Both the position numbers and the translations under genes were made by a program. From a virus, in the IMG/VR virus record IMGVR_UViG_3300035698_007036, positions 55,537-119,536 of that record: DNA of 64,000 bases. The stretch is one strand, 5' to 3'. The notes under the pieces are model-generated. The model was not told where the DNA came from. It saw only the letters and a program-made list of their open reading frames with translations, and did no database searches. Each line of letters begins with the position of its first letter. Position 1 is the stretch's first letter. Positions 16,227 through 57,303 of the stretch are shown piece after piece.

Positions 16227-16525
16227 GACGTGGATGGGAAATAGAATTAAGTGACGGTACCATTATTAATGAATTTCAGATGGACTGGACAAAGGTCCCA
16301 AAGAAGGAGATAATCCGTTTAACTTTGAGATATGACGGAAGAGAGTGGAATCTACAGGGTCATGGGGCCTATTTACAAAAGAAGCGTGGGTCTATGACCC
16401 CGTTTCACCAAGATAGTTTTAGAGTAGAATCTCGATCGATAGGTTACTATGACGGTAACTCTAAAGTGTGGTATACAGTTAAAGAAAGTACAGGTAAAAT
16501 GAGGGTGGAAGTTGAGGATACCTAA
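16223..16525 (+). CDS. Hypothetical protein
   Basis: ATGA overlap with the upstream gene and TAATG coupling to the downstream gene. Confidence 0.7.
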   Translation: MRRGWEIELSDGTIINEFQMDWTKVPKKEIIRLTLRYDGREWNLQGHGAYLQKKRGSMTPFHQDSFRVESRSIGYYDGNSKVWYTVKESTGKMRVEVEDT

Positions 16526-21810: not shown

Positions 21811-21823
21811 GGTGGTAAATTAA

Positions 21824-22225: not shown

Positions 22226-25200
22226 TTTTATAAATGAAGCCTCTACTATAAAAGTGTCTACGTTGTGTTATCATGACAATACAGAGGGATATGCCTCTGA
22301 TTTTAGTGTCAATGGTGAGTTCAGCGATTGGGACTACTATAATGGTGTTCACACTTATGGATGTTGGGGAGGTTTTCTGTTCGGAACTCTTCATGGAACT
22401 TCTGGTTATATAGGTAGATACAATACATTTAATCCTGTGCCAGGTGAGGCATACTACTTCGTTAAGATAGCCATGAAATATAGTCCTGTAGAGAGCAGTG
22501 TGGCCTCTCAGGGCCGATTGATGTGGCGAACAATAGCTAACACCTCCTGGGGTGTTGACAAGCAAGAAGACTTTACTATATACGCTGACAATGAATGGCA
22601 TGTTTACACAATAAATATGGGTAATGCCCAATGGTGGCAGGGCGACATCAATGACTTACGTTTGTACCCTGCTCTTAACGGTAGAGCTGATGATAGTTTT
22701 TTTATAAAATATATAAAAATAGTTTCCACTGATACCTATAGATGTACTAATGGTGACTGCGACTACTACACAAGCTATGAGCACGATTGTCCTGGTGTTG
22801 GCACCAAAGGGGCGTGTACCTCCTCCCCTAATGAATCTGACTACTACACTGTTGGTGGCACTCTTGTAGTTAATATAAATGGTTATGGTCAGGAGAACAT
22901 ACAAATAGCTACTATGGTAGATGCTACAGGTCTACAGGTGGCTAAAGTTTTAGGCCAGTCTATATCTGGATTAGACATAGGTGGTTATGCTGAGGTGGAT
23001 GTAACTTACAATGAGGATAAAACGTTAACAATATACTCTGGTACATATGGGGCATCTAGTTCAGTGGATGTTGAGGACTCGGACACAGCCAAAGCTCTTG
23101 GATTCGATACTACTACAAAAATTGTAGGAACTGATTCTTCTTCTGGGTACCTACCTCGTTGTTCTTTTTCGCTTAAAACCTACCAGTTATACGATATATT
23201 CGATACAAATGATGATACAAACTTTATTTTCGATCCCAAACTTAATAACATAGAGGGAGGTAGAAGAGATGTTTTGGATAGTGGTTTAGGTACCGCAGAA
23301 CTTTCGTCTTCAAGTACCGGAGTTACTTCCAGAAGCTACACAAAAATTTCTAACTATGGCAAAACCATAATAGACTTCAGTAATCCGTTTAATGCTAGTG
23401 GTAGAATTAACAAGATAATGGCGGCCTGTACATTGACCATTGATGGAGGCACAGCCACTAGTTGTAAATTTAAAATATTTAGACCTACTAAGGATGGCAC
23501 TTTACGTTATATTACTTATGTGGATATACCCAATAGGGAGAGTGGCAGCACCTTACAATCAAGTAGCCAGGAATTTGTTTCTGTGGATTGTGATGTTATA
23601 GTAAATAAGGGCGATTTTTTAGGCATCTATAACGCCGATGTTTATGTAGGAAAGCATAAAGCTGGGGATGTGGATGCATTCTATACCCAAGTGTCAGGGG
23701 ACGTAGTAACTGATGTGATCAGTTATTCCACTTTAGGTGACGGAACAGCCGGATTTTCCATGTACGCTTGTGGTAATCAAAAACAGAATAGGATAACTTT
23801 GGATCTTGATTTGGGGGCTAGATATAATTTAAATAGTGTAGTTATAGATGGAGAAGTAACCTCAGACTATTTAGAGTACAATATAGCACGATGTAAGGAT
23901 GTAACTTGGAAGTTTGATACTTTCGGACTAACCCACACCACCGGTTATTGGGATGATTTACACGGTTATGGTGTTAGTTATACAAACCCTAATGCTGGTT
24001 ATGGGTTAAGCAGTCTTACAGATGGTATATTTGTTGTTGAGAATAATACAGCTGCAGATAGTTATGTTGTACAGACCGGAGATGATAAAGAAGGGGTTAT
24101 ACCCACTAACCCTAAATACTTTTTTTGTAATGGAGACGGTGAGTGGCTGTCCACACTTATGTTTACCGCAACATGGCAAATTGATCCATATATAGAAGAA
24201 TTTGAACACGATCCTGTAGCATTTTACATTGAGTTCCCTAACATGGTAGAGAAAGAAATATCTAGGTCTAAGATATATTTTAAGGAACCACAGAATTTTA
24301 GAAATTTTGGGTTGTCTTACTTGAGTGACACGGCAGGCCTATATGGCAATTCCGATGACAAACAATACACTTACATACCAGAGTACGTAGCAGTTACACT
24401 TAACGGATTAAGATACCACGATGGTATGTCTCTTTATTCTAATGTTGAGCCGTATTTGTTTAATAACCCGTGTACAGGGGAGCCTGAAATGACTTTTCCA
24501 GCCGCTTGGGTTGAAGGCAGTAGTGCCACTGTAACTAACGGTGATGAATACCAGGCATCAACCATGTGCGAATGGACCACTATAGAGCATGAATGGGATC
24601 CAGTAGTCTGTAAAGGTTTCAGAGTTTATTGTAATTTCCACAAGTCCACTAAAGTAACAGAGATGGAATTGTACTGTAGAACTGATGATGTAGGCTCAAG
24701 TTTAGCCGGTAGTACGTCACTTTTGTTTTCTAATTACGGAGACCATTGGACAGAGGCGAGTATGCTTCAGAATGGGCAAGAATCTGTAGAGGCCGTTATA
24801 GGGGATACCCCGAGATACTTTGTTTTGGATATAGAGCCTATAACTACTGTGAGACTAAAGAATGTAGTATTTAATATAGACAAAGAAGCGGGTTATGTAG
24901 GTAGTAAGGGGTGTGATTACGATGTATATTCAGGTGATGCCCGCCTTGGGGAGACTGGGTCTTCACAAATAGTCACTTTGAAAAATGTTTATGGAAGCCC
25001 TTATGATTTGTATGCTAACATTGCTCAAAAGAGCTTGAAGGAGTCTGGTTTAATTTTCCATAGTAGACTAAATGATGATGCTGCCGTAACGAATCCAATA
25101 ATAGGTGCTGATGCTAAATATAAAAAGGCGTCAGTCAGTCATGAGCTGATGGGAGTACAGAATAACTGTGCTATAAATTGTATAACTTATGGTCTTGGCA

Positions 25201-28200
25201 ATTTAATGGATGGTGCCAGGACTTTTTTTTCTAACGACGATGGACAAACTATAATTTATAACGGGACTGTGTCAGGTACAGACTCGATGGATTTCACTAA
25301 CATAAATACTGGGTCATTAACTACAGTGACTTTACCTACTACTTACAGGGATAGATATTGGAGATTTTATGCTCCATGGTCAGCTTTAGATATAAGCATA
25401 AGAGAGATTCAGGTTTTTGATGCTGATGGTGCTATTTATACTAATGTTACATGGTACTATGATTCCGGTGATCCGACTAATGTACCGATTTCCACATCAG
25501 CTCCTCATTTGACCAATGGTTCTTTGACTGGAAGTTACTATACCATTTCTGAGGGATTGTTCATAACAGTAGACCTTGGTGTTTCTACCACTATAAAGGA
25601 AGTGAGACTTTTTCACGAACCAGTTGCTGGTTATACTACCACGGTTGACCAAGCTGGTATAGATGATAGGGTGGTAATGTACATAGCTGGTGGAGATGGA
25701 ACGTCTGGTCATATTTTTTCTGATGAAAGTTATTATACACATTCACTTAATACGAACAACGGTGCTGTTAGCACCCCTATGGTAGGTTCTTTTTCTTCTG
25801 GGGCTATAGAGTTTACAGGTTCAGAATATTTAAAGTTTAATACAAGTGATGAGTGGCGACTTAATTTAGATATATACGATATAAGTGTAAGAGCTCGTTT
25901 TACATCACTACCTTTAGATGGAGAAGATGCTTGTTTTGTGGAGGGTACCTCTGCTGGAGAATACAAAGCATGGAAGTTTTGTTTAAGAAATGTCTCTGGT
26001 GTCTACTATTTGTCTTTTTATGAAAACAATTCTTTAAAACAAAACGCTGTTTGGACTCCTACTCTAAATACTTGGTACACATTGAAGGCCAGAAGAACCC
26101 CAGGTACTGGCAATCTTTACGTTGATGGTGCCTCTGTGTATTCGGCATCGGTCACAATAGTTAACATAAATACAGGTGTATATGTTTATGTTGGTAGGGG
26201 TTTTGATGGTCACATGGAAGAGCTTAGGGTTGGTAGAGAAGTAAATCGTTCCAATACCCCTCCAACTGTCAAATATGAAACATTTCTTAGACTCGATGTT
26301 TACACAAGTGCTGATGATGTAACTTACGCACTGCACTCTCAGAACAGTTTGGCATTTAATGGGCTTTCAAGTGAGTTAACCACAGGGGGAGTAGCTGCCG
26401 GGGGAACCAATCCGTATAATGCGTATGACAACAATGCTTCCACTGAGACCCAGTGGGGTGGTGGGTCAGGAGTTAGAACGTCTACTTATACGTTCTCTTC
26501 TCCACAAGAAATAGATTTTATAAGAGTAAGAGGTTCATATTACCCTTTTTACATTTATGGTTTCACACCTGAAGGTAATTCCTATTTATTGATAACTAGT
26601 AATGGTGGTAATAATACGTGGATCACGTTCTCTTTTGTTAGTTATGAGGCATACAGTTATATTTATTACAGGACTCAAATTTCTCAGTATTCGAATTCCT
26701 TAGATGAGATTCAGTGTTTTAAAAAGAACGATAGGTCTAATAGTACATTTATGTCTATCTATTACTCTTATTTTTATGTTGATTTAAATTATAGAAAAGC
26801 CTTATACCTTATTAGAAGTTGGGGAGCAGCCGATGCAGCGGATGTTTCTCTAACTGAAAATGTAGAGTACTCTACAGATATTACATCAGATGTTAATTCA
26901 GTAGTCTTTAATAGTAGTGAAACAGACGAGGTTAGATGGTTAAGAATAGCTATACCTAATACCAGTATTAACCGTACTATTCGAAAGCTGGGGATCTACC
27001 CCGATATAAGAAAATCTGTTGTTTATGGTCATTATAATTGTACTTGGCATGACTTAGGCACCGCTTTAACAGACTACGGTACTGGTACCAATGCTGCTTT
27101 AAACAAGACTGTAACTTCGTCAAGTCAATTCGGGGATTTGGGACCTGAAAGAGTAACTGATGGGGTTATAGGCGATACCATTTCCTACGCGTTTCTTTCC
27201 GGATATGAGACAGCTCCTTGGGTAAAAATAGATTTAGAGGAGGCTATGGATATATATAGATTCAAGTGTTATTTTGGTTACGATAGTTCTGATACTAGTT
27301 ACTTGATTACAAGTTATACAATAGCAACTTCATTGGATGATAGTGCTTGGACTACAAGATTTAGTATATCCGGCAATACTGAATTAGAAAGAACACATGA
27401 TCTCACTAGTAGTATATCAGTGAGGTATGTTAAATTGACCATTACTGGTTATAATAACACCTCAGTACTTATGTATTTATCTTCAGGAGATTACGAGTAT
27501 TTTAAAGGTACAGTTGTTAGAGAGTTAGAGGTATATGCTGATTACGGTGCTTCTTATATAAGTAGTAATGACTGGCCTATACTAATAACTAATTTAAATG
27601 ACCAATTTTATTTAAAAAGCCACTCTGTAGTTGGAATAGATTCACAAAGTACTACTGACGACTGGAGCAACATCGACTCTAATTTTTCATATTCTGATGT
27701 TGTTAGTGCTAACCCTAACATGGCAACCTTTGGTGACTGGGGAGATGCTCCGGTATATGATCAATGGGTAGCTGTAAAGAATACTACGGCTAGTTACTAC
27801 GATAGTGGGCCAAAATATATAAAGCATCTTGTTGTTGAAAACAGTCAAGGCTTAAGTTCATGTGAGTATAGTTGGTGGTGGAGATCATCTCTAAGCACAC
27901 TATCAAATGACCATATGTATGTTAAGGAGTCTGCACGATCTTTAAAAATAGAATATCCCACAAGCTCTGGGGTGGATAATATATCATTAATAGAAGGTGA
28001 TTATTTTGGAGTTGATGCTCAAGCAGGAGTAAGAGACGGCATGCGGTTGTGGCTTCATATTGACGACATAAACAATCTTGATACTGAATACGGTTATTTC
28101 TATTTCGGCAATGAAGAGACTCCGGTGGTATACAAATGGAACATAAAAACTTTTTATGACGCCGGAGCGTTAAGTACGGGTTGGAATAGTTTGTTTCTGC

Positions 28201-29180
28201 GATTTAAAGATTATGACGATATAGATTACACCAATTCACAAGATCCATATACTGTAGATGTTAGAGTACCAAGTACTATAAATTGGAAGTCCATAGGACT
28301 AGCTTTCAGGGGGGTGGGCACCGCACTGACTATGAGAATAGAGGGGTTTACTTTGTTAAAGAATAAATTCCTAGACAGAGGCTACTACAATTATGGCCTG
28401 TATCTTTTACAGAATGACACACTGACTATAAATATGAGCGAGTTAAGTCTAAGTGAAGGAACTATAGAGTTTGTAATTAGGCCTGATTATGATCCTAATG
28501 GACGAGGTTATTTCAATGTTTTTAAACTGAGAAGCCTTTTTGCTATGTGGAATTTGGCTAAAGACTTTTTCGGGGCATATATTTACGGAGGAAATTTAGT
28601 TATTTACTTCGGGAACCTAAATGGCAGCCTTACTTTTTTTGAAACCCCTGTGGCGGACTATTGGGAAAGGGATGACATAGTTCATATAGGTATAACTTGG
28701 TCCAATAACGGTTCAGCTATATCTTCGGACAGCAGTACTGTCCAAGTTTATGTTTATGGTGAGTTACAGAGTAGGTTGTTTGATACCTGGGAAGTGAATG
28801 AGGATAAGAAGGTTAATTTCACATTAGGGGGTAAGCCTCCGATTGCGGTTTCTCAGAACTATTCTGTGGATATCTCATCTATAGACTCGGTGGTTTCTGA
28901 ACTACGTATTTACAACTATTGTAAAACTAATTTTGATGACACTCTATACGATGTGTTTAATGCCCAAGGAAATCTGGAAGATCCTAGTCAATTTATTGAG
29001 ATATCAAAAGATAATCTAACCTTCTATAAAGTAGGAAATACGTCATTGCCTCTGTTTTGGGATGATGTGCCAGACGGTACTGCGGTTTCTCTTTATGTTA
29101 GAACTGTTTTACCTAGAGCCCTAACAGGAAAAGAGTTAAGAACTGCAGGAATAATAGTCAGTTGGGATGTGGGGGTATAA
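22215..29180 (+). CDS. Giant multi-lectin virion protein (CBM-like, LamG/ConA-like, F5/8 discoidin-like domains), 2321 aa
   Basis: GTG start with AAGGAGG; WHVYTINM...WQGDINDLRLYP (CBM-like); TWYTL...LYVDG...FDGHMEELRV and EGTIEF...HIGITW...SELRIYN (LamG); NAALNKTVTSSS...WVKIDLEE...VRYVKLTI...VRELEVY (discoidin). Confidence 0.8.
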   Translation: MAYNFINEASTIKVSTLCYHDNTEGYASDFSVNGEFSDWDYYNGVHTYGCWGGFLFGTLHGTSGYIGRYNTFNPVPGEAYYFVKIAMKYSPVESSVASQGRLMWRTIANTSWGVDKQEDFTIYADNEWHVYTINMGNAQWWQGDINDLRLYPALNGRADDSFFIKYIKIVSTDTYRCTNGDCDYYTSYEHDCPGVGTKGACTSSPNESDYYTVGGTLVVNINGYGQENIQIATMVDATGLQVAKVLGQSISGLDIGGYAEVDVTYNEDKTLTIYSGTYGASSSVDVEDSDTAKALGFDTTTKIVGTDSSSGYLPRCSFSLKTYQLYDIFDTNDDTNFIFDPKLNNIEGGRRDVLDSGLGTAELSSSSTGVTSRSYTKISNYGKTIIDFSNPFNASGRINKIMAACTLTIDGGTATSCKFKIFRPTKDGTLRYITYVDIPNRESGSTLQSSSQEFVSVDCDVIVNKGDFLGIYNADVYVGKHKAGDVDAFYTQVSGDVVTDVISYSTLGDGTAGFSMYACGNQKQNRITLDLDLGARYNLNSVVIDGEVTSDYLEYNIARCKDVTWKFDTFGLTHTTGYWDDLHGYGVSYTNPNAGYGLSSLTDGIFVVENNTAADSYVVQTGDDKEGVIPTNPKYFFCNGDGEWLSTLMFTATWQIDPYIEEFEHDPVAFYIEFPNMVEKEISRSKIYFKEPQNFRNFGLSYLSDTAGLYGNSDDKQYTYIPEYVAVTLNGLRYHDGMSLYSNVEPYLFNNPCTGEPEMTFPAAWVEGSSATVTNGDEYQASTMCEWTTIEHEWDPVVCKGFRVYCNFHKSTKVTEMELYCRTDDVGSSLAGSTSLLFSNYGDHWTEASMLQNGQESVEAVIGDTPRYFVLDIEPITTVRLKNVVFNIDKEAGYVGSKGCDYDVYSGDARLGETGSSQIVTLKNVYGSPYDLYANIAQKSLKESGLIFHSRLNDDAAVTNPIIGADAKYKKASVSHELMGVQNNCAINCITYGLGNLMDGARTFFSNDDGQTIIYNGTVSGTDSMDFTNINTGSLTTVTLPTTYRDRYWRFYAPWSALDISIREIQVFDADGAIYTNVTWYYDSGDPTNVPISTSAPHLTNGSLTGSYYTISEGLFITVDLGVSTTIKEVRLFHEPVAGYTTTVDQAGIDDRVVMYIAGGDGTSGHIFSDESYYTHSLNTNNGAVSTPMVGSFSSGAIEFTGSEYLKFNTSDEWRLNLDIYDISVRARFTSLPLDGEDACFVEGTSAGEYKAWKFCLRNVSGVYYLSFYENNSLKQNAVWTPTLNTWYTLKARRTPGTGNLYVDGASVYSASVTIVNINTGVYVYVGRGFDGHMEELRVGREVNRSNTPPTVKYETFLRLDVYTSADDVTYALHSQNSLAFNGLSSELTTGGVAAGGTNPYNAYDNNASTETQWGGGSGVRTSTYTFSSPQEIDFIRVRGSYYPFYIYGFTPEGNSYLLITSNGGNNTWITFSFVSYEAYSYIYYRTQISQYSNSLDEIQCFKKNDRSNSTFMSIYYSYFYVDLNYRKALYLIRSWGAADAADVSLTENVEYSTDITSDVNSVVFNSSETDEVRWLRIAIPNTSINRTIRKLGIYPDIRKSVVYGHYNCTWHDLGTALTDYGTGTNAALNKTVTSSSQFGDLGPERVTDGVIGDTISYAFLSGYETAPWVKIDLEEAMDIYRFKCYFGYDSSDTSYLITSYTIATSLDDSAWTTRFSISGNTELERTHDLTSSISVRYVKLTITGYNNTSVLMYLSSGDYEYFKGTVVRELEVYADYGASYISSNDWPILITNLNDQFYLKSHSVVGIDSQSTTDDWSNIDSNFSYSDVVSANPNMATFGDWGDAPVYDQWVAVKNTTASYYDSGPKYIKHLVVENSQGLSSCEYSWWWRSSLSTLSNDHMYVKESARSLKIEYPTSSGVDNISLIEGDYFGVDAQAGVRDGMRLWLHIDDINNLDTEYGYFYFGNEETPVVYKWNIKTFYDAGALSTGWNSLFLRFKDYDDIDYTNSQDPYTVDVRVPSTINWKSIGLAFRGVGTALTMRIEGFTLLKNKFLDRGYYNYGLYLLQNDTLTINMSELSLSEGTIEFVIRPDYDPNGRGYFNVFKLRSLFAMWNLAKDFFGAYIYGGNLVIYFGNLNGSLTFFETPVADYWERDDIVHIGITWSNNGSAISSDSSTVQVYVYGELQSRLFDTWEVNEDKKVNFTLGGKPPIAVSQNYSVDISSIDSVVSELRIYNYCKTNFDDTLYDVFNAQGNLEDPSQFIEISKDNLTFYKVGNTSLPLFWDDVPDGTAVSLYVRTVLPRALTGKELRTAGIIVSWDVGV

Positions 29181-31783
29181 TGAACTTTAATCTTTTAGAA
29201 TCTTCTTATGGGTCTTTTGATACGTCAGTTGGTACAGTAAGTGGTACCTTTGATGAAATGCGTGCCATAATGACGTTATCAGGAACCAAAGACATATATG
29301 GAGATGATATACTGTGTATGGATTTTGATCTCGGCTCACGAATAGAGACAGATAGTATGCATTACTATTTCAGCTGTACTACAGCCTCAGCCACCGTTGC
29401 TTCAGGTGTAGGTTTTTATTATAAGAACGACCCAGTAGATTCTTATGTAAATACACCCACTTTAATAAGTACTGGGTATTATACTACAACTATTTCCGGG
29501 CTTAATGCCCCAAGGTACATAAGAATAGTACACACAGTATCTGGAACTTCCATATCTGGTACAGTTACCGGAGTAGAGGTTACGAATGAGGATAACACAG
29601 TAGACTTTGGCACAGATGGCTCATTGGCAAGTTTAACCATACACAGTACTACCAACACGGCACAGTTAACTAGTTCCCATGTGTATAACACTAATGGTAT
29701 TCGGTCGAATGCCTATGTTAAAATAGAACCTACAGGCGGTATTGTGGATGAGGCTTTATTTTTGTCTGGCTCAGAAGATGGCCCTTGGCGTGGTCCAAGA
29801 AGTGACCAGTTCATGGATCCTACAGAATCTTCTCAGGCGTTATTGTATAATTTTCCCGAATGTGATAAGCGTGGCTCTATAACTGGTGATGTATTTACTG
29901 TATACCCTGATTATACTGAAGGTGTGTTCACCTCAAAAATAATGGACACTGGTGGTGAACCATTTTTCAATGTCAACCTGTCTTGTAATTTACCTGCTGG
30001 GACGAGAATAGCGGTTGATGAGTCTGATACGTCCTCGACAATAGAGGTTAGAAGCATTAACAATAGGCCTAAGAATTACGCCTATTACCGTAGATATTTC
30101 AGAAGCCCTTACCATGTTAGTACTAATTATGCCGGTGTGTATAGCACCTACAATTTAAAGGATGGGACCGTAAAAGCGGCTAATTGTAGAGACATAGAGG
30201 ATCCTGATTATAATGAATACGCTAGAAGTATTATGGAGACTATAGACCCCAATAATGAGTATACATACCTTCTTTTCAGGGGCAAAGAAGTAGTTTACAA
30301 AAAATTCACTACAACCGATATTGCCCACGATACTTACGATAAGAGTGTAAGGTTAAACTCTAATGCTATCCTGACTCCATGGGCAGTATTGCCTACCTCA
30401 ACAGGCGGCTGTTGGCTTTATTTTTATACGGCAACCGGGGACACTTTAAGTGTTGGCTACTATCTTAGGTACTATAATTCATCAGGCTCACTACTTTATG
30501 ATTCTACGGCGTCTACTAACAAAGATATATATTATTGTGACGTAGTTTATGCCACAGGTGATTTATGGTATAACTCAGGTGCAGTTATCAAGATCAACAA
30601 TGATGGTGACATAATATATACTATAGTGCCAGATGTTACGAATCTCGATTTAAGAGGCATTTGCACAACTTCCGACGGAGGCTGTTGGATTGTTAATGAT
30701 GAAGATCTTCATAGGCTGGATTCAGAGGGTAACGAGGTAGATTCTATTCTTGGGGTAAGTACTTACGGTTCACTGACCATGGTAGCCCTTGATGGTGAAA
30801 CAGGCCTTTGGTTAATGGATGGTAATTACGTTAGGAATATAGATATAGACACGGAGCGTGTGCTTTTCGACGTGTATGTAGGTCAGCCCAGGTTGTTTAG
30901 ACCAACTGGTACGGATGACGGAATTATGGTTCATTGTACAGATTATTATTGTAAATTTATAGATAAAGACACAAGAAGTATAACTAACAGCCATTATGTT
31001 TACACAACAATACCAGGGCCTTTTAGTGTCTCTTTTGATAACGATAATCATTCTGGAAAGATGTATAAAACCAATGATTTTTTCCCGATATCCGCATCTG
31101 CTTCCTCATACGAAAGTGATGGTTGGGCTAGCTACCACCCGCCTTACTACGCTGTTGCTAATAGTGAATATGTATATTGGGAGGCTGATCACAGCGTTAC
31201 AGGATATATACCCCAATGGTGGAAATGCGATGTTGGAAAATTCGTGGTACCTAAGATTTTGCGGATTAGTCAAGTAAGAAGTGATAACTACTGCCGGTTG
31301 GAGGCCAGTACAGATGATTCTAATTGGGACATATTATACAATTCTATGCGACCAAGTACCAGCAGTATGAGTCAGTACTCTTTTTATACTAACCAAAAAG
31401 CTTATAGGTACTTTCGGATATATTTCTATTCTGGGGCAAATTACTGTGGTATACGCGAGACTGAACTTATAAGTATATCTCCCTATTTTCCTAATGAGTT
31501 GGATACGGAATGGAATAATTTAGAATGGAAAAAAGTGTCGTTAGATAGTTACGATTTTTCTTCTGATAGATACCATCAGGTTAGGATTACTATGCGAAGA
31601 GACAGCCTGGCAATAGAGCCATCTGTTTATGGTGGATATGTAAACAAAAGCACAGATTTAGGAGATGTACGCCCTAATGGAAGTAAAGAGTTTTACATAA
31701 AATTAGAGACCCCCTCAGATACTAGTGATTACTTAGGTAGTGCTAATACTAACGTTTTAGCTTGGTGGGAGGTTCCAGTATAA
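29180..31783 (+). CDS. Virion protein with beta-propeller and discoidin-like domains
   Basis: TAATG coupling; repeated GGCW/GDLWY/GLWL blades; PQWWKCD...LEASTDDSNW...AYRYFRIYF...IRETEL. Confidence 0.75.
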   Translation: MNFNLLESSYGSFDTSVGTVSGTFDEMRAIMTLSGTKDIYGDDILCMDFDLGSRIETDSMHYYFSCTTASATVASGVGFYYKNDPVDSYVNTPTLISTGYYTTTISGLNAPRYIRIVHTVSGTSISGTVTGVEVTNEDNTVDFGTDGSLASLTIHSTTNTAQLTSSHVYNTNGIRSNAYVKIEPTGGIVDEALFLSGSEDGPWRGPRSDQFMDPTESSQALLYNFPECDKRGSITGDVFTVYPDYTEGVFTSKIMDTGGEPFFNVNLSCNLPAGTRIAVDESDTSSTIEVRSINNRPKNYAYYRRYFRSPYHVSTNYAGVYSTYNLKDGTVKAANCRDIEDPDYNEYARSIMETIDPNNEYTYLLFRGKEVVYKKFTTTDIAHDTYDKSVRLNSNAILTPWAVLPTSTGGCWLYFYTATGDTLSVGYYLRYYNSSGSLLYDSTASTNKDIYYCDVVYATGDLWYNSGAVIKINNDGDIIYTIVPDVTNLDLRGICTTSDGGCWIVNDEDLHRLDSEGNEVDSILGVSTYGSLTMVALDGETGLWLMDGNYVRNIDIDTERVLFDVYVGQPRLFRPTGTDDGIMVHCTDYYCKFIDKDTRSITNSHYVYTTIPGPFSVSFDNDNHSGKMYKTNDFFPISASASSYESDGWASYHPPYYAVANSEYVYWEADHSVTGYIPQWWKCDVGKFVVPKILRISQVRSDNYCRLEASTDDSNWDILYNSMRPSTSSMSQYSFYTNQKAYRYFRIYFYSGANYCGIRETELISISPYFPNELDTEWNNLEWKKVSLDSYDFSSDRYHQVRITMRRDSLAIEPSVYGGYVNKSTDLGDVRPNGSKEFYIKLETPSDTSDYLGSANTNVLAWWEVPV

Positions 31784-33618
31784 TGAGTGACTATGCTTCA
31801 GATATAGACGTCAGTGATTTTGATTTTATGGGAAGCATAACCGTGACTAATAATGTAGATGAGGACCTGATAAACTATTCTATACCGTTAGCACTAACAC
31901 CAGACAATTTTAATTTTGCGTTTGCCCAATCGGATGGTGCTGATATAAGAATAGCCGAAGGCTCTGGAGGAACTCAGGTTTTACACATGTATTTAAGAAG
32001 ATGGGTAGTTAATACCTACGGTGAACTCTGGTTTAAAATACCCAAGTTAGAAGCACTAGACACTAAGACTTTCTACATATATTTTGGTTTTGTCGGGTCC
32101 ATTTCGGATGCTTCTAATATAAGTGAGATGGATTTTTTGATGGCAGATAGGTTTGACAGTAATAACTATGATTCTAGTAAATGGTCACCAAGTACATATT
32201 ATTTAGATACCAAAAATTCCCCATTAGCTGGGGCTATCAATTGGCAGATAAGAGCATGGGTAGAGCACACCCCCTCATCTAAGAATGCCGGTGAGTACCC
32301 TAATTATGCATCACTGCGTCATTACTTTTGGGCGAACCCGTCACCTGATTTTTATTTTCGTTACTTTTATAATAATGTAGCGACTGATTTTGTTACTGAT
32401 AGTGAAGTAGGTTATTCTACGACTAATGGTACTATAGAAAAGGGCTCATTTCAGGATATAATTTACGATTATTATGAACCAATAGATACACTGAGATTGA
32501 GAATACAGAAGCATGATACATTTGCTGACAGTGACTACACATGGGAAAAGCAGACATTTGGTAATTTACGTTGTACTAATTTTAGGCATCAGTGGTATAC
32601 TAATAAGACCAGTGTAGGCCAGGTTTATATAAGACAGGGCGGAGTAATAATGAGGGACTATTGTGGTAGCGATCCTACCATAGATTACTCAGGCCTTTAT
32701 ATAGAATTTGCTAATATAGAACCTACGGTTCTTTCTACTAAAACTTATAATGATTATTCAACGGATTACATTTTCTATCACGAAACAGATTTAGGCGGTG
32801 ATCCACGAAATCTTTCTGATAATGCTAACAATAGTGTCTGGACCACAGATATTACAGTTGATATAGACGGCTATGCCTTAATAGACTTCGGTAGGTATGA
32901 CGACAGCCTAGTCAGTACAGAGTTTGTCCACTATGATAACGGGCATGTTAGATATTACGGTGCTTCTAAACTGTCAGATAATGAACTAGATATCAACGGG
33001 AGAGATTACTGGAGTAGTACCACCTCATCAGGTGCGTGGGCAGCTATAGAGTTTTACACAGACACAAAGGTTGGAAGTTTGTTTGTAAAGGCTGTACCTG
33101 GCGAATTAGATAGTATGATAGAAAGTTTTAGATTTGAGGGAACTGCCACCGATCCAAGACTCCCCACTACTGTCTGGAAGACACTTTGTAGCGGTATAGC
33201 CAATGAGGCTACAGGTTGGCAGGGATTCTACTTCACTAATGGCAGGCCTTTTAAATACTATAGACTGTTTGTTGATAGTACTTATGGTGGAAATGCGAAG
33301 ATCCAGGAATGGAAACTCTATGAGTTTATAGAGAATCCTGTTCAGTTAACTCAGAAAGCTATTTCGGTGCTTAGGCTAAAGCCTACAACGGCTTATGGTC
33401 AGTTTCCAAAACAGTTAGAGCTACAGGGATCTAATGGTTTAACATGGGATACCATCACATCCGCTAGTACCTATACACCATCAGACCTAAATTGGCAGGA
33501 ATTTGCTTTTACTAATACAGCCCTTTATTGGTCTTATAGAATTAATTTTACCGACAATTGGACTGGCACAAACGATAAAATAAGCATAGCAGAATGGGCT
33601 ATGCAGGAGGAGATATAA
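31783..33618 (+). CDS. DUF2341-like plus discoidin-like virion protein
   Basis: FAQSDGADIRI...LWFKIPKL...FYIYFG (DUF2341); FKYYRL...IQEWKL and FPKQLELQGSNG...YRINF...IAEW (F5/8-like). Confidence 0.75.
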   Translation: MSDYASDIDVSDFDFMGSITVTNNVDEDLINYSIPLALTPDNFNFAFAQSDGADIRIAEGSGGTQVLHMYLRRWVVNTYGELWFKIPKLEALDTKTFYIYFGFVGSISDASNISEMDFLMADRFDSNNYDSSKWSPSTYYLDTKNSPLAGAINWQIRAWVEHTPSSKNAGEYPNYASLRHYFWANPSPDFYFRYFYNNVATDFVTDSEVGYSTTNGTIEKGSFQDIIYDYYEPIDTLRLRIQKHDTFADSDYTWEKQTFGNLRCTNFRHQWYTNKTSVGQVYIRQGGVIMRDYCGSDPTIDYSGLYIEFANIEPTVLSTKTYNDYSTDYIFYHETDLGGDPRNLSDNANNSVWTTDITVDIDGYALIDFGRYDDSLVSTEFVHYDNGHVRYYGASKLSDNELDINGRDYWSSTTSSGAWAAIEFYTDTKVGSLFVKAVPGELDSMIESFRFEGTATDPRLPTTVWKTLCSGIANEATGWQGFYFTNGRPFKYYRLFVDSTYGGNAKIQEWKLYEFIENPVQLTQKAISVLRLKPTTAYGQFPKQLELQGSNGLTWDTITSASTYTPSDLNWQEFAFTNTALYWSYRINFTDNWTGTNDKISIAEWAMQEEI

Positions 33619-33619
33619 T

Positions 33620-36547
33620 ATGGACGCAACATATGTTAGTAGTAGTAGTTTTAAGGTGGCGGAGGATAAGACATTAGAATTTATAACTGATAGACGCGTC
33701 AAATTGGATTGTGGCGTTTCTGGGATAGTATACACCAATATAGTATCCAGTTCTTACGCTATTGGGTTTACTACCGTTGTCATAGATGAGTCATCCTTAG
33801 ACTCTAATTTAATAACAGCTCTTTATGGTGTAGTTGCTCCTGGAGAGACTGGGAGTTTACCAACCCATTCACACGACGGATCAGAAGGTAGTGGTGGTGG
33901 TTTAACAATAAGTGGTTCAGCTTCAACATTATTGGATCTTACAGATACTCCGTCTATTTATGATGACGGTAAGTACCTTCGTTCCACTTCTGATGGTACA
34001 GAGTGGGCCACGGTTTCAGGCGGTTCAAGTGTTGCGTCCTTCTTAGATTTAACTGACACACCTTTAGCCTATGACACTGGTAAATATGTTGTTTCTACCG
34101 CTTCAGGCATTGAGTTTTCTGACTATAGTATAAATTCGGCCAGCACAGATTTTGTGGCCAGGCGGTTGTTAGCAGATTATGATTTAGATAATGAAACACT
34201 AAGCGACACTATAACATTAGACCCTACAACACAAGATAGAGTAGTTATTGAAGTAGAGAGTATGGATACAAATGGCGGAGCTCCATATGTACAGCTTAAC
34301 GGAGACTCTGGTTCTAATTATACTTATGGTTATGTCGGTCAGGATGGGGCTAATACCATCCAAAATTCAGGACCAGCAACCAGTATTGGACTTGGTAGTG
34401 GTAACAGAGAGAGTTGTGCATCAATAACTGATCTATTCTTAAAAAAGACTGGTAATTATAGGAGTGCTATTGTACAACGAGCAGATTATGAAACAACAAA
34501 TACTGACAGTATAATAATAAACGTTCATTATTACTGGGCAAATACAGCAGATGACGTGACCAGTTTAGTTCTTGCAACGGCTGGGAATGTAACTGGAACC
34601 GTAAAAGTTTATAGTTACGAAAACATAGATGTGCCTACAGTCAGTGGTATTGACGGTGCCGATGGGGCCGATGGGTCTGACGGGGCTTCCACATTTTTGG
34701 AATTAAATGATACCCCAACAACTTACTCAGGAACTGAGGGACAGTATCTTGTCTCGACCGCTTCAGGCATAGAGTTCACTGACATAGCTTTAGTTGAATC
34801 AAATTTTAAAGCTTATGAGTTGGTAGTAGAATATGATTTGAGTGGTGAGGCTTTAAATGAGACTATTTCTAGTGTGTCTGGTGATACCAATGATAGGTGG
34901 ATGATTGATTATAATTTACTAGATACGTCAGGATCAAATAATGCTATTCATCTCAGCTTTAATGGTGACACAGGGACTAATTACTATGTAGGTAATATAG
35001 CGGAGAGTAACGATGCAGCAACAGCTGGGCATGACATCGGACTTACCTATACCCAGTTGGCATATGCTTATGCAAACACAGCGGTAAATGGTTACGCCAA
35101 TCTTTATCTTGAAACTGGTGCCCCTAGATCTGTTCACTCGTTTATGTCTAGAACAACCACAACTGATGCTGCTAAACATTTACTATATTATGGTTCAACT
35201 TGGTCGAATACAGTGGACGAAGTTTCGACTATTGAAATAACTTCTGCTGGAGCACTAACTGGTAAGATAAGATTATACAAATTCAAAGAAGTATCTATAC
35301 CTGTCAAGCCAGCATCTTTAACTGAGTCTACTTTCTATGCTGATGAACTGGTTAAAGAATGGGATTTAACAGCATCAGGTATAGATGAGGTATTCGATTG
35401 GGACGGTGAGAATGAAGAAGCTCATATGGAATTTGCTGTTACGAATAATACTTCCGCTATGACTTTCGTAGTCAGGCCTAATAGTGATACCTCCGCTACT
35501 TATGGTTTTTCCGCCCAGTATGTTACAGACACACCATCTGCTACTCAGTCCTGGAATGCTGATTTGGCTTGGGAGGGTCTTGCTGTAGCCGCTACAGGTG
35601 GTACAGACACAATGTATTTTAGAGGTTATTTTAACTCTAGTCTTAAAAAAGCTTCAGGAGGTCGTACTGGATATACTTGGCATGCAAGATCGGATAGTAA
35701 TAGACAAGGTTACTATCTAACTAAATGGGATGATTCAAGTTCTTTAGTAACATCTTTACAGATATATTTAACTGGGGCTCCCTCTGGATCAGTTAAACTG
35801 TTTAAGAAAAAGAAAGTGGCCTTACCTACAGTAGAGACAGAAGTAAATCTATACCGTGGTAAGCAGTCTATCAAGGTTAATTGGGCCACAGCTTCAGGTG
35901 TTGATTGTCTGCCTGGTAATGTAGAAATAGGTGGAACACTTTACAATATAGCCACTACTGTCAGTAAGGACGTGACGAGTTTGGACGTCAGTACCTGGTA
36001 TTATGTGTATATCGATCCACCATCAACAGGAATTTCTTTGGATGAGGGGGATGTAGAATATTCTACCACTGCTCCTACTCAAAATACTACACTTATGGGC
36101 CAGTATAATGGGAGCAAGAGATGTATAGGTGCTTTCTATTCTGATGTCTCTAGTAATATAGTAGAATTTTTTAACTCAAGGGGTTATGTAGAATGGACTT
36201 CAGGCGTACCATTGGATCAAACTGATCGATTTCCCAGTAATGTTTGGACCGATCAATCCCTTATAGTCCCACTTTGGGCAGATGGAGCAGTTAGTCTACT
36301 TGTTGCTGGCCAAAGTGTTAATTCAGAGGCTGGTTCTTTGTATATTAGGACTAATGGGACTAGCGGTAATGGTATATGGTGCGGTTACGTTTATACATCC
36401 AGCTTACGAACCGAGGTGGTAGTCGATTTAACTTATGATTCTACCGGGAAAGTCGAAACCAAATTTAATGCGGTGGCGGCAACTTCCAAGTTTGATTTGT
36501 ATAATATGGGACATTTTATTCCAGACGATATCTATACAGGAGTATAA
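33620..36547 (+). CDS. Tail fibre-like protein with LxDTP repeats and three internal domains
   Basis: TLLDLTDTP/SFLDLTDTP/TFLELNDTP...GxYxVSTASGIEF repeats; short GxD collagen-like run; three ~165-aa repeats; WYYVY...RCIG tip module. Confidence 0.75.
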   Translation: MDATYVSSSSFKVAEDKTLEFITDRRVKLDCGVSGIVYTNIVSSSYAIGFTTVVIDESSLDSNLITALYGVVAPGETGSLPTHSHDGSEGSGGGLTISGSASTLLDLTDTPSIYDDGKYLRSTSDGTEWATVSGGSSVASFLDLTDTPLAYDTGKYVVSTASGIEFSDYSINSASTDFVARRLLADYDLDNETLSDTITLDPTTQDRVVIEVESMDTNGGAPYVQLNGDSGSNYTYGYVGQDGANTIQNSGPATSIGLGSGNRESCASITDLFLKKTGNYRSAIVQRADYETTNTDSIIINVHYYWANTADDVTSLVLATAGNVTGTVKVYSYENIDVPTVSGIDGADGADGSDGASTFLELNDTPTTYSGTEGQYLVSTASGIEFTDIALVESNFKAYELVVEYDLSGEALNETISSVSGDTNDRWMIDYNLLDTSGSNNAIHLSFNGDTGTNYYVGNIAESNDAATAGHDIGLTYTQLAYAYANTAVNGYANLYLETGAPRSVHSFMSRTTTTDAAKHLLYYGSTWSNTVDEVSTIEITSAGALTGKIRLYKFKEVSIPVKPASLTESTFYADELVKEWDLTASGIDEVFDWDGENEEAHMEFAVTNNTSAMTFVVRPNSDTSATYGFSAQYVTDTPSATQSWNADLAWEGLAVAATGGTDTMYFRGYFNSSLKKASGGRTGYTWHARSDSNRQGYYLTKWDDSSSLVTSLQIYLTGAPSGSVKLFKKKKVALPTVETEVNLYRGKQSIKVNWATASGVDCLPGNVEIGGTLYNIATTVSKDVTSLDVSTWYYVYIDPPSTGISLDEGDVEYSTTAPTQNTTLMGQYNGSKRCIGAFYSDVSSNIVEFFNSRGYVEWTSGVPLDQTDRFPSNVWTDQSLIVPLWADGAVSLLVAGQSVNSEAGSLYIRTNGTSGNGIWCGYVYTSSLRTEVVVDLTYDSTGKVETKFNAVAATSKFDLYNMGHFIPDDIYTGV

Positions 36548-36550
36548 AGT

Positions 36551-37552
36551 ATGCCAACAGACACTTGCTATGCCACCTGGGTAGAATCAAATACCCAATG
36601 GATTGATTACGATGACCAACAGTGGGGAGAGTGTCTACCAGGGCTGCTTAATCAAATATGGACAGATACAACTCTATATGTTTATGCTGCTTTAGACCTT
36701 GGTTTTGAGGTTATAGACATAGTAACAGAGAATAAAGTAGCCTACATAGATTATAGTGGAGGGTTCTCTACAGTGTGGGCTAATGATACTATTGTTTTCT
36801 TGGGCACATCTACAAATGGTATTAGTATTTTATATAAGACAGATATAATAGCAGATAGTCCTCCCACTGATTTAGCAAGCTATTCACAAAGTTTAAATTT
36901 TTTTTATGGGACGTCATCAAATAATATAAGATATCTACATGGTAATAATGATTTTCTGTTGTGCGTTACTGACACAGAGGTGGATATATTAAAGCTGGAT
37001 AACAATACGTATAGAAGTTCAAGTACAACAGTAAGTGGCAATGCTTACAAAGGTTTTATGACGTCAACAGGTAAATTTTATTACACCACAGTGAGCCCTC
37101 AGTGGTCTGTAAATCGCGTAGATAAGCCTATTATGGATTGGACCACCCCCCACGCTACTTATGTTGCTGATGGCACAATACTGGCCTCTGGTATAGCTAT
37201 AAATGATATATTTGTAACCGAGGGAACCTCATCTAATGGAATAGATAATGTGCTTTTGATAGCCACGAGTTCAGGCGTGTATGTAATAGACGAAAATGAT
37301 TCATTTGATATCTATAATACAACCGGTTCTGGCTACTCAATAGTACCTGGTCTGTCTAGTAACTTCACAGCTGTTTGGGCTGATGAAAACTCTAGCCTAT
37401 CGAGTGGGAAGTTATATGTAGCTAGTGAAGATGCTTTCACTATAATAGATTTAGAAACAAAAACAGTATACGATAGATATACACAAGAACTAAAGGGTAG
37501 AGGTAATGAAGTCCTAGATACTGATGGAATAATAGATATAAACGTAGTATAA
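36551..37552 (+). CDS. Probable beta-propeller virion protein
   Basis: Repeated blades (FSTVWAND, INDIFV, LLIATSSGVYVI, FTAVWAD, LYVAS). Confidence 0.65.
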   Translation: MPTDTCYATWVESNTQWIDYDDQQWGECLPGLLNQIWTDTTLYVYAALDLGFEVIDIVTENKVAYIDYSGGFSTVWANDTIVFLGTSTNGISILYKTDIIADSPPTDLASYSQSLNFFYGTSSNNIRYLHGNNDFLLCVTDTEVDILKLDNNTYRSSSTTVSGNAYKGFMTSTGKFYYTTVSPQWSVNRVDKPIMDWTTPHATYVADGTILASGIAINDIFVTEGTSSNGIDNVLLIATSSGVYVIDENDSFDIYNTTGSGYSIVPGLSSNFTAVWADENSSLSSGKLYVASEDAFTIIDLETKTVYDRYTQELKGRGNEVLDTDGIIDINVV

Positions 37553-37563
37553 GGAGATAAAGT

Positions 37564-39165
37564 ATGGCACTAGTGGGCTGGAATCCTGCTCAGAAATTAG
37601 CACTGACCATAGATAATTCAAAAGTGGATGAGGATCTAATCGATTTCCCTATCAATATCGCTTTAACCTCTAATACTGGTATAGGAGGATTTGATGCTGT
37701 AGATATTTTTGACAAACTTTCCTATGCTGATAGGCATCATATCGTAGTTACTGATTCTAATGATAACAAGCTTTACACAGAGATAGCTTATTGGGATTCT
37801 ATAAATGAAAAAGCGTCTCTTTGGACTAAAGTGCCTACGGTTTCTTCTGGGACTGATACAGACTTATACTTATACTACGATGCTGCTGCCACTACTGCTT
37901 CTGGTTACACCAACGACACTGGTACGATCCAGGCCAAAGCTGTATGGGACTCTAATTTTGTTGGCGTTTGGCATATGAATCAAGATCCAGGTATTGGTGG
38001 GGCTTGTATATTAGATTCAACTTCGAACGAATTACACGGTACTCCTAATGGCTCCATGACGTCCGCTGATTTGGTAGATACCAACTATGGTATGAAAGCT
38101 ATAGATTTTGATGGTTTAAATGACTATATAAATGTACTGGATAACTCCAAATTAGATCTAACTACCGCACTCACAATGGAAGCTATAGCAAGACCACAAG
38201 ACTGGTCTTTAGAATCTTATCAAAAGATATTATGTAAGACGGATAATGCTAATACGAGTCCATACTTTATTCAAACAGACAACTCTGTAGTTACAACCGG
38301 CAGCTTTTACTATGGGGAATATATAAGTGGGGCGTACAGAAGTGCTAGGACGACGACTGGACTACCCGAGAATGCTGACTATTATTTAGCTGGTACCTAT
38401 AACGGCAGCACCAATCAAGGATATTTAAATGGGATACCAGGTGCGGTTTATAACATAGCTGGTAGTATAGACACATCAGGTTACCCATTAAGGTTTGGAG
38501 GTGAATATTTTACAAATAATTTTTTTGATGGTTATATCAATGAAATTAGGATATCTAAATCTGTAAGAACTCCAGGATGGCTTAAGACCACATATTACTC
38601 TAACTGGGATGACTTGTTAACTCTTAGTAGTGCTCTTTGGGCTAATTTTTATTTTTCTAACCCCACACCTTCTGGAATTACGGTATACGGGGTTACTGAA
38701 CCTCTTTACATAAATGTCACAATCAGCGGGTCCGAACCATCCTTTATGTACGATGCTGTATTTTATGATGTCGGAGATGTCCAAATAGGTTCTACCATTT
38801 CAGGATCAAGTAGTGGTAGTCAAGTGACAAGAACTCTTGACACACCGTCTGGCACATCTTATAGTTGGTATGTAACTGCTACAACTTTAGGTCTTAATGA
38901 CACAAGCCCGATTTATACCTTTGACAATAGGTTTATGTGTGAAGGATACGCTTCAGTTAACAGTGTCAGAGCGTCTGGGATACCAATAAGACTCTATAGA
39001 AGGAGTGATGGTGAGTTAGTAGACTCTGTGACCACGACTGGCACAGATGGTACGTTTCAAATCGAGACCACTTATAATGAATATCATTATGCGGTCGCCT
39101 TATACACAGATGACACAACAAACGCCTTGATCTATGACTACTTGACACCTTCCGGGATAAACTAA
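37564..39165 (+). CDS. DUF2341 + LamG domain virion protein
   Basis: KLYTEIAYWD...LWTKVP...LYLYY; FVGVWHMNQ...AIDFDGLNDYI...YYLAGTYNG...FFDGYINEIRIS; C-terminal IRLYRRSDGELV...DGTF domain. Confidence 0.85.
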   Translation: MALVGWNPAQKLALTIDNSKVDEDLIDFPINIALTSNTGIGGFDAVDIFDKLSYADRHHIVVTDSNDNKLYTEIAYWDSINEKASLWTKVPTVSSGTDTDLYLYYDAAATTASGYTNDTGTIQAKAVWDSNFVGVWHMNQDPGIGGACILDSTSNELHGTPNGSMTSADLVDTNYGMKAIDFDGLNDYINVLDNSKLDLTTALTMEAIARPQDWSLESYQKILCKTDNANTSPYFIQTDNSVVTTGSFYYGEYISGAYRSARTTTGLPENADYYLAGTYNGSTNQGYLNGIPGAVYNIAGSIDTSGYPLRFGGEYFTNNFFDGYINEIRISKSVRTPGWLKTTYYSNWDDLLTLSSALWANFYFSNPTPSGITVYGVTEPLYINVTISGSEPSFMYDAVFYDVGDVQIGSTISGSSSGSQVTRTLDTPSGTSYSWYVTATTLGLNDTSPIYTFDNRFMCEGYASVNSVRASGIPIRLYRRSDGELVDSVTTTGTDGTFQIETTYNEYHYAVALYTDDTTNALIYDYLTPSGIN

Positions 39166-55890: not shown

Positions 55891-55892
55891 GG

Positions 55893-57292: not shown

Positions 57293-57303
57293 AGGAGATT
57301 ATT

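Follow-up and report, generated by a model that had tools for sequence, protein, structure and literature searches.

The tetrapeptide T-x-S-G is enriched in putative virion proteins of one clade of large uncultured phages and may mark a recognition or modification site

A tetrapeptide in unrelated putative virion proteins

The stretch of DNA analyzed here (the window, 64,000 nucleotides) is the final 64 kb, positions 55,537 to 119,536, of a single 119,536-bp virus contig (IMG/VR record IMGVR_UViG_3300035698_007036) with a CheckV completeness of 41%. Its long open reading frames (ORFs) all lie on the + strand. A long series of mostly unannotatable large proteins lies upstream of the enzymes, which comprise bacterial-type RecA, DnaB, a Toprim primase, a pol III beta-like clamp, DnaJ and PD-(D/E)XK nucleases at 41-51 kb and the products of a sugar cluster at 51-64 kb. 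The subject of this work is a short sequence, the tetrapeptide T-x-S-G, that is over-represented in the upstream proteins. A PHROG search of this module gave almost no matches, and the label of virion protein used for it rests on synteny, a few tail and TerL matches, and fold types: a TerL gene at genome 9079-10815, two tail-protein PHROG matches, DUF2341/LamG lectin-like domains, a beta-propeller fold, LamG-type phage proteins as structural neighbours and a synteny that is kept in relatives. The complete or near-complete genomes of the clade to which the contig belongs (G009, G010 and G012) measure 256-298 kb, and the contig probably represents about 41% of a genome of 250-300 kb.

The 30 + strand ORFs at window 14-41133 (13,563 amino acids, aa) contain 36 instances of T-x-S-G, and the 30 ORFs at window 41221-63999 (7,591 aa) contain four, one of which is residue 3 after a doubtful TTG start. 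A sequence-only reading of the window had counted about 36 and about 3 by hand, the latter of which holds if the hit after the doubtful start is set aside, and had placed hits of the enzyme region in the DnaJ CxxCxG and epimerase GDTNSG motifs, where our recount also finds them. The T, S and G content of each protein predicts 9.17 occurrences in the virion ORFs, against which the 36 observed represent a 3.9x excess (Poisson p 1.6e-11), and a count of 36 did not occur in any of 2000 within-protein shuffles (mean 9.3, maximum 23). Among all 8000 patterns of the form X-x-Y-Z, T-x-S-G ranks first by six orders of magnitude, followed by V-x-V-D (18 vs 6.0 expected, p 5.5e-5). Its sister motifs remain within 0.8-1.6x of expectation (observed/expected: T-x-T-G 8/9.3, S-x-S-G 10/9.2, S-x-T-G 9/9.2, T-x-G-S 11/9.2, T-x-S-A 7/6.9, T-x-D-G 6/7.4 and T-x-N-G 9/5.6), and the sub-patterns T-x-S, S-G and T-x-x-G are close to expectation once the T-x-S-G hits are taken out. 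Since T-x-G-S and S-x-T-G are flat despite having the same composition, local patches rich in T, S and G are not the cause; the per-protein expectation, the shuffles and the flat permutations together rule out a composition artefact. The excess thus survives the composition-shuffled and sister-tetrapeptide controls that the sequence-only reading had proposed.

The codons used differ at all four positions of the motif, which rules out a DNA repeat or nucleotide motif. Furthermore, at 50 of the 51 sites in the two enriched blocks of the genome the flanking eight residues on either side are unrelated, and the sole related pair belongs to the repeated 'S-TASG-IEF' module of ORF 33620, so that internal protein repeats are likewise excluded as the source. 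The initial description of the motif as one of varied codons in non-homologous folds, and not a DNA repeat, agrees with these data. The second enriched block (genome 19.3-32.4 kb; 15 vs 2.5 expected) is located outside the window, upstream of a giant ORF of 8048 aa. We therefore regard the over-representation of T-x-S-G in the putative virion proteins as confirmed, and as stronger than first reported.

The enrichment follows protein type: within the genome, fibre-like proteins are motif-rich, with no enrichment in the giant ORF, the enzymes or the head-module block. Four ORFs, 29180, 33620, 36551 and 37564, account together for 21 instances vs 2.6 expected; the tetrapeptides and per-ORF counts listed beforehand for these (4, 8, 3 and 6), as well as the hits in ORFs 6628, 6981, 13762 and 14426, were all recovered. 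The motif does extend over many unrelated ORFs of window 1-41133, as had been claimed, but that claim fails for three of the largest proteins, namely the 1761-aa ORF (1/0.57), the 2321-aa ORF (2/1.71) and the giant ORF, all at expectation. In relatives, the proteins of 2400-3000 aa that are syntenic with the 1761-aa and 2321-aa ORFs are only weakly enriched. As an observation on the giant ORF itself, its product is rich in Lys (10%), lacks Cys and contains hardly any Trp, and its gene separates the putative head/neck block from the tail/fibre block.

ORF 29180, whose homologues begin at the same ATG that was assigned to it at the outset, presents TVSG, TLSG, TISG and TVSG in its N-terminal part, and Foldseek matches indicate a beta-propeller in it. 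ORF 33620, which has no Pfam, PHROG or phage-record match, contains three copies of a '(F)LDLTDTP...Y..GKY..S-TASG-IEF ... [Y/W]DL...' module. At the '[Y/W]DL' site only the third copy carries T-x-S-G: as in the sequence-only reading, the three equivalent stretches are YDLDNETLS (residue 187), YDLSGEALN (residue 405) and WDLTASGID (residue 581). The BFVD structural matches of ORF 37564 are LamG-like phage proteins, and ORF 37564 is likely of receptor-binding type. The coordinates of these and the remaining features are collected in Table 1. The structural gene block is interrupted by a GIY-YIG homing-endonuclease-like ORF at window 13395-13751 (PHROG 5123/7168).

Table 1. Features of the contig considered in this work. 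Positions refer to the window unless marked as genome positions; motif counts are T-x-S-G.
Feature	Position	Strand	Evidence and remarks
DNMK-type deoxynucleoside monophosphate (dNMP) kinase	genome 4239-4883		PF21448, E 1.2e-10
Giant ORF, 8048 aa	genome 32474-56620; C-terminus at 2..1084	+	internal control; 3 motifs vs 3.3 expected
Two small ORFs, 113 and 323 aa	6628..7952	+	2 motifs each (2 vs 0.06; 2 vs 0.41); no family match
518-aa ORF	14426..15982	+	2 motifs; no PHROG match
1761-aa and 2321-aa ORFs, with a 133-aa ORF (21824-22225) between	16525..29180	+	large ORFs not enriched
Putative tail/fibre protein, N-terminal jelly-roll-like domain and beta-propeller	29180..31783	+	4 motifs in first ~130 aa
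DUF2341-containing tail protein	31762..33618	+	Pfam DUF2341; PHROG phrog_17517 (tail) at C-terminus; 1 motif
Fibre-like protein	33620..36547	+	8 motifs vs 1.16 expected
Unannotated 333-aa protein	36551..37552	+	3 motifs vs 0.28 expected
DUF2341 + LamG jelly-roll protein, C-terminal beta-sandwich	37564..39165	+	Pfam; 6 motifs, 5 in the sandwich
GT4 glycosyltransferase	51077..52366	+	Pfam, NCBIfam; E-x7-E retained; top clade marker, 47-68% identity
ThyX/Thy1-like protein (flavin-dependent thymidylate-synthase fold), 190 aa	52366..52938	+	between both GT4 genes
Second GT4	52939..54057	+	second Glu of E-x7-E replaced
Sugar cluster	54059..63999	+	Pfam/NCBIfam; continues past contig end
UDP-GlcNAc 2-epimerase	54820	+	
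DXD glycosyltransferase	56459	+	
Pyruvyl transferase	57304	+	
FrhB-like	58137	+	partner of pyruvyl transferase
Glyco_trans_1_2-like	59233	+	
WbuX-type N-acetyl-sugar amidotransferase	59810	+	
FtsJ-like methyltransferase	60897	+	
4,6-dehydratase	61480	+	
PseB/FnlA-like dehydratase	62498	+	
RmlD-like reductase	63484	+	cut by contig end

Spread across related phages and placement of the sites

The two motif-rich proteins with many homologues show the same residue specificity at the level of whole families. ORF 37564 has more than 250 metagenomic homologues, and the 120 listed contain 463 instances of T-x-S-G vs 66.4 expected (6.97x), with T-x-T-G at 61/66.2 (0.92x) and T-x-S-A at 41/50.1. ORF 29180 has 196 matches among cluster representatives; the best 150 of these contain 442 vs 69.6 (6.35x), of which 305 vs 21 fall in the N-terminal 220 aa, with T-x-T-G at 57/60.6 (0.94x). 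The two families are not homologous, their hhalign probability of 0.7% ruling out a hidden relationship, and T-x-S-G is the only well-populated pattern that reaches at least 2x in both of them and in the other proteins of the phage (41 vs 10.3). The p-values of these comparisons, and of the comparison of loci that follows, are nominal, orthologous sites of related phages not being independent.

The two family alignments also served to retrieve loci from IMG/VR, among which two groups can be told apart. In nine non-redundant loci, all from related phages (61,814 aa), T-x-S-G occurs 222 times vs 38.1 expected and is the top pattern, with T-x-T-G at 46/35.5; in twelve loci of other phages, which share only the DUF2341/LamG module (68,634 aa), it occurs 46 times vs 41.6 (1.1x). 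The most divergent clade members are still enriched (G009, 22/5.5 with TerL at 44% identity; G010, 11/2.8 with TerL at 40%). Outside the clade, 27 virion proteins of T4 (13,000 aa) show no specific excess (T-x-S-G 13/6.7, T-x-T-G 12/7.4, S-x-S-G 9/6.7), 15 lambda proteins are at 2/2.7, and the complete 253-kb genome G006, which has no GT4, presents a generic and unspecific excess (T-x-S-G 13/4.2, T-x-T-G 20/5.4, S-x-T-G 11/4.2). T4, lambda and the twelve other-phage loci thus rule out a generic property of phage fibres. One locus, L012, was at one point taken for a motif-poor relative with the GT4 pair (4 vs 2.7), and was withdrawn as such when locus L039 of the same record gave 35 vs 5.3. The enrichment is therefore clade-wide and confined to one clade of large uncultured phages.

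As to the identity of this clade, the DnaJ and several core glycosyltransferases (GTs) of the contig resemble those of the 'moraphage' lineage, which the part of PMC12619734 available to us describes as jumbo phages of Bacteroidota hosts with DnaJ and four core GT groups. The two lineages may be identical. At the start of the contig (genome 643-1638) lies a gene for an actin-like 'Volactin' (PF25216, E 1.7e-57; weak MreB match).

To place the sites in three dimensions, we used AlphaFold (AF2) models built from homologue alignments and numbered according to ORF 29162 (the longer-start form of ORF 29180) and ORF 37564. Their mean predicted local distance difference test scores (pLDDT) are 76 for ORF 29162, with about 90 in its N-terminal domain, and 83.5 for ORF 37564. 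By DSSP assignment, in six of the nine tabulated sites (110 and 125 of ORF 29162; 368, 386, 411 and 427 of ORF 37564) the Thr is the last residue of a strand (as at 110 and 125) or follows it immediately, and x-S-G lies in or enters a short loop. The other three (25 and 38 of ORF 29162; 111 of ORF 37564) are in coil, and a tenth site, residue 528 of ORF 37564, comes directly after the last strand (520-527). By secondary structure, then, the modelled sites occupy strand ends and loops and none lies inside a strand, a placement that would be compatible with the surface exposure that the initial proposal called for.

The residues around the motif are also constrained. The 345 clade sites compared, which are not independent of one another, show an extended preference for [T/A]-T-[A/I/V]-S-G-[T/I/V]-[E/D], and Arg, Glu and Lys are nearly excluded at positions -1, x and +1. 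The x residue is small or hydrophobic, mostly A, V, I or P. The parallel first drawn with the Ser-Gly acceptor of proteoglycan xylosylation is in this light an analogy only, there being no acidic context and charged residues being depleted around the motif.

The sugar cluster and its glycosyltransferases

The contig stops inside the gene for the RmlD-like reductase, and the sugar cluster consequently extends beyond the record. The genes at 54820-63999 suggest the synthesis of a 6-deoxy-N-acetyl or amidino hexosamine and of a pyruvylated sugar. A scan for transmembrane segments found none in any sugar-cluster protein and at most two in any protein of the contig. The GTs of the contig are presumably soluble, and a lipid-carrier pathway of the Wzx/Wzy type was discarded, as the contig encodes no multi-transmembrane protein.

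Among the GTs of the cluster, only the GT4 pair is conserved across relatives. Pfam searches find it in five of five records, with 54-66% identity in G001 and G002, and it is also present in G009 and G010. The DXD GT (56459) and the Glyco_trans_1_2-like protein (59233) were both rejected as clade-wide enzymes: PF04488 occurs in one of five relatives, and PF13524 appears in one of five and below threshold only, in records that are 32-66% complete and for which absence is weak evidence. Among 20 further records, eight contain an orthologue of the GT4 encoded by ORF 51077 (54-68% identity) and all eight are motif-rich (14/3.3 to 43/5.3), whereas the 12 records without the orthologue are flat or weak (1/3.7 to 8/2.6). 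Eleven of these 12 gave no match and one has a 27%-identical GT4; eight of the 12 are at least 97% complete. Locus L013 is motif-rich (22/5.6) with no GT4 found in its record, a 47-kb fragment, 16% complete, in which such an absence carries no weight. The co-occurrence of motif and GT genes, proposed as a check by the sequence-only reading, is thus seen in these 20 records, as a contrast between one clade and unrelated phages: TerL is 40-63% identical inside the GT4-bearing set and could not be detected in the GT4-negative ones, so that the association sets one clade against outsiders and cannot show causation. Inside the clade, GT4 is better conserved than TerL (68, 53 and 47% vs 63, 44 and 40% in G012, G009 and G010, respectively).

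A separate feature of the conserved genes concerns their length in some relatives. In G011 (C1:106250-108586) and G014 (C1:63480-65948) the GT4 orthologue is contained in an open frame of 822-869 aa that it matches in two pieces about 1.1 kb apart, and the TerL of G012 (C1:117441-120470) is likewise split within a 1025-aa frame. These split frames look like in-frame insertions, possibly intein-like.

The gene that separates the two GT4 genes, ORF 52366, has no Pfam, NCBIfam or PDB sequence match, and its structure matches a viral cluster with PF02511 in the ESM Atlas (TM-score 0.89/0.95). In G003, G014 and G027, orthologues (58-61% identity) are found next to the GT4 genes or between them. At the equivalent position, G001, G002 and G028 carry a divergent ThyA-like gene, and that of G011 lies 9 kb off. 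DNA-hypermodification clusters are characterised, among other features, by active-site substitutions that alter the chemistry or substrate of the thymidylate synthase homologue, such as N177D and D169N in ThyA numbering. The ThyA-like genes of the relatives match part of the profile only, and the thymidylate synthase (TS)-like genes of relatives include L018:7173-7874(-) and L019:1518-2333(+). That one position holds a ThyA-like gene in some records and a ThyX-like gene in others is noteworthy and looks like non-orthologous replacement. A divergent TS-like gene accompanies the GT4 pair in 8 of the 14 clade records covered by both searches.

DNMK-type kinases, of which the contig encodes one, accompany modified-nucleotide pathways in T4-like phages. 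The ORF 51077 GT4 has its best family and PDB matches in BshA, MshA-like 3c4q/3c48 and sucrose-phosphate synthase, with 3oy2 also among the PDB matches. According to the part of Lee et al. 2026 (PMC13326640) available to us, phages DLP3, RB69 and RL38J1 make glycosylated 5-hydroxycytosine from clusters that comprise a TS homologue, a nucleotide kinase, nucleoside diphosphate (NDP)-sugar genes and GTs. The best structural matches of those GTs are BshA, MshA and sucrose-phosphate synthase (PMC13326640, Table 1), and the matches of the DNA arabinosyltransferases of DLP3 and RB69 are the same enzymes as those of ORF 51077. The clusters described there resemble the one at 51-64 kb in gene content, adjacency and the nearest characterised relatives of the GT4 proteins. 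They differ from it in that their TS-like gene has the ThyA rather than the ThyX fold, and in that their sugar is arabinose, whereas the genes present here point to N-acetyl, amidino and pyruvylated sugars. The comparison explains the gene cluster and not the motif.

The GT cluster may thus be unrelated to T-x-S-G, with the GT4 pair, the TS-like gene, the dNMP kinase and the NDP-sugar enzymes forming a DNA-hypermodification pathway, and we hold this to be somewhat more probable than its contrary. Such a pathway would first yield a C5-hydroxylated or hydroxymethylated pyrimidine as a nucleotide and then glycosylate it on the DNA, and this role of the cluster is compatible with either a functional or a structural role for the motif. 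Besides the placement of the ThyX-like gene between the GT4 genes, the recurrence of a TS-like gene with the pair, the kinase and the shared nearest enzymes of ORF 51077 and the DLP3 and RB69 arabinosyltransferases (PMC13326640), the stronger conservation of GT4 relative to TerL and the lack of encoded membrane glycan-assembly proteins on the contig are in line with a DNA substrate. On the other hand, the searches detected neither a ThyA-like nor a ThyX-like gene in the complete G012 or the near-complete G010, and G004 and G009 have a canonical ThyA only, elsewhere in the genome; the available part of PMC13326640 makes no mention of ThyX-like hydroxylases or hydroxymethylases; and a pyruvyl transferase and a sugar amidotransferase are, in our judgement, unusual for a DNA glycan.

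Possible roles of T-x-S-G

We tentatively propose, from the sequences and the structural models, that T-x-S-G could be a clade-specific recognition or modification site on exposed turns of the distal virion proteins. The extended sequence [T/A]-T-[A/I/V]-S-G-[T/I/V]-[E/D] would be displayed on turns after beta-strands of fibres, lectin-like proteins and propeller proteins, where a clade-specific soluble trans-acting factor would most likely read it. The outcome would be an O-linked modification of the Ser or Thr, with glycosylation as the leading candidate, taking place in the host cytoplasm before virion assembly. This proposal builds on what was observed: the motif is enriched, the excess is specific to these residues, it extends over non-homologous folds and is confined to one clade, and the modelled sites lie mostly at strand ends; that the reader is a trans-acting factor, the factor a modifying enzyme and the modification a glycan are steps that we infer. 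About 50 turns in unrelated folds settle on exactly T, S and G, with the alternatives at chance and in one clade, which a shared reader explains naturally. The contig also has a soluble glycosylation capacity, with several GTs and NDP-sugar enzymes and cluster proteins devoid of transmembrane segments, and this capacity, together with the precedent of mycobacteriophages, makes O-glycosylation the leading candidate.

The narrower claim that a phage-encoded soluble GT glycosylates T-x-S-G in the host cytoplasm appears unlikely, and such a system would possibly share enzymes or NDP-sugars with the DNA-glycosylation pathway of the phage. The sequence-only reading had gone further in taking T-x-S-G for the sequon of an O-glycosyltransferase encoded at 51-64 kb. 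Its statistical basis, the co-occurrence with GT genes and the strand-end or loop location of the sites speak in its favour; the mechanism is partly supported, the link to an enzyme being conjectural and facing a strong competitor, as the GT4 pair bears the signature of DNA modification and the other GTs are not clade-wide.

Several observations weigh against a recognition or modification site. The only clade-wide candidate enzyme found is the GT4 pair, which is better explained as a pair of DNA glycosyltransferases: since the GT4/TS-like/GT4 arrangement and the dNMP kinase match the published DNA-glycosylation architecture, we rate DNA glycosylation, by a modest preference, as a likelier role for the pair than protein modification. 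The contrast between the clade and other phages may reflect a single evolutionary event, and the homologous DUF2341+LamG segment considered alone, with generous boundaries, gives no clear-cut contrast, at 32/11.5 (2.8x) in clade loci vs 11/5.9 (1.9x) in other phages. In the two family alignments, 219 of 371 and 103 of 141 T-x-S-G occurrences (59-73%) fall in columns where at least 20% of the sequences carry the motif, and in columns used by at most 5% of the sequences the motif is at 1.35x and 0.94x of expectation. The sites are thus old and conserved, with new ones not arising at a raised rate. For the glycan coat that had been envisaged on the tail this means that there is no sign of a glycan-shield-like turnover of sites, lineage-specific ones being at chance. 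Moreover, the conserved columns admit substitutions of S by T, A or L, of G by A or N and of T by S, and a hydrophobic or small x at the end of a strand fits the in/out pattern of a beta-strand followed by a Gly turn. Positional conservation of this kind fits a structural motif as well as it fits conserved functional sites.

The main rival to a recognition or modification site is such a structural (cis) motif, in which the Thr would close the strand, the hydrophobic x would point into the core and Ser-Gly would form the turn, the whole being fixed and inherited in the clade with no enzyme involved. The strand-end location of six of the nine tabulated sites, the prevalence of A, V, I and P at x, the concentration of occurrences in conserved columns with rare sites at chance, the conservative substitutions admitted there, and the mild to moderate generic excess of [S/T]-x-[S/T]-G in T4 virion proteins and G006 would all follow from it. 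We nevertheless find it doubtful, because it leaves unexplained how some 50 independent turns, in folds that are not homologous, came to share exactly T, S and G. In beta-hairpin statistics, Asn-Gly and Asp-Gly form turns no less readily, and T-x-D-G and T-x-N-G are near expectation here, as are T-x-T-G, S-x-S-G, S-x-T-G and T-x-S-A (0.7-1.7x overall); phages outside the clade with homologous modules are at 1.1x. The closest known structure is the beta-hairpin with a type I turn and G1 bulge, of the 'x-P-D-G' type, in which Asp-Gly and Asn-Gly are favoured. In both, a Gly closes the loop and is preceded by a small polar residue, and the TPSG variants add to the likeness; the difference is that T-x-D-G and T-x-N-G are not enriched here.

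It is improbable that T-x-S-G is instead read by a non-enzymatic partner or ligand (a clade-specific assembly chaperone, a decoration protein, or a host polysaccharide contacted by hydroxyl-rich T-T-x-S-G-T loops), which would draw on the same evidence for a trans-acting or functional constraint, on the up to four hydroxyl residues that the extended motif packs into six positions with charges excluded, and on the concentration of the motif in lectin-like and fibre proteins, since no candidate partner was identified and sites after successive antiparallel strands, as judged from secondary-structure strings, would point to both ends of the sandwich and not to one face.

Known glycosylation systems offer partial likenesses to the proposed recognition or modification of T-x-S-G. 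Bacteroidota have a general O-glycosylation system with the sequon D-(S/T)-(A/I/L/V/M/T), which receives its glycan in the periplasm, transferred en bloc from a lipid carrier. A short sequon common to many unrelated proteins of one lineage is shared with the present case; the motif is another one, the phage has no membrane glycosylation proteins and its virions assemble in the cytoplasm. Paired GT4 proteins of the GtfA/GtfB type O-GlcNAcylate serine-rich repeat adhesins, and the GT4 paralogues of the contig, one with an incomplete E-x7-E, could similarly act on Ser in the cytoplasm. The GtfA/GtfB substrates are long Ser-rich repeats, in contrast to the isolated turns found here, and neither GtfA nor GtfB was seen among the PDB matches of the two GT4 ORFs. 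In mycobacteriophages, glycans are found at the C-termini of capsid and tail-tube subunits (Freeman et al. 2023, as cited in the available part of PMC12619734). The likeness lies in phage-encoded soluble GTs proposed to decorate virion proteins in the host cytoplasm, and the difference in that the candidate sites reported here are internal strand-end turns of fibre-like proteins, set by a tetrapeptide and predicted from sequence only. The literature searched on phage virion glycosylation sequons and on 'TxSG' contained no such motif.

Taken together, a roughly 6-fold, residue-specific enrichment of one tetrapeptide over the non-homologous virion proteins of a single clade is hard to explain without a shared reader, and it suggests that the virions of abundant uncultured large phages have a layer of biology not yet described. 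If T-x-S-G is a modification site, it would provide a sequence rule that predicts decorated phage surfaces, along with a compact pair of tag and enzyme for engineering; if a GT reads it as a sequon, tailed phages would have their first described system of sequon-directed O-glycosylation. Should it be structural, it would represent an unusually strict, lineage-specific turn code of use to fibre design. Independently, the GT4/TS-like/GT4 arrangement, in which ThyA-like and ThyX-like genes take each other's place, suggests a new branch of DNA hypermodification whose modified pyrimidine would come from a ThyX-fold enzyme. Both ideas, on the motif and on DNA modification, are testable with recombinant proteins and require no phage culture.

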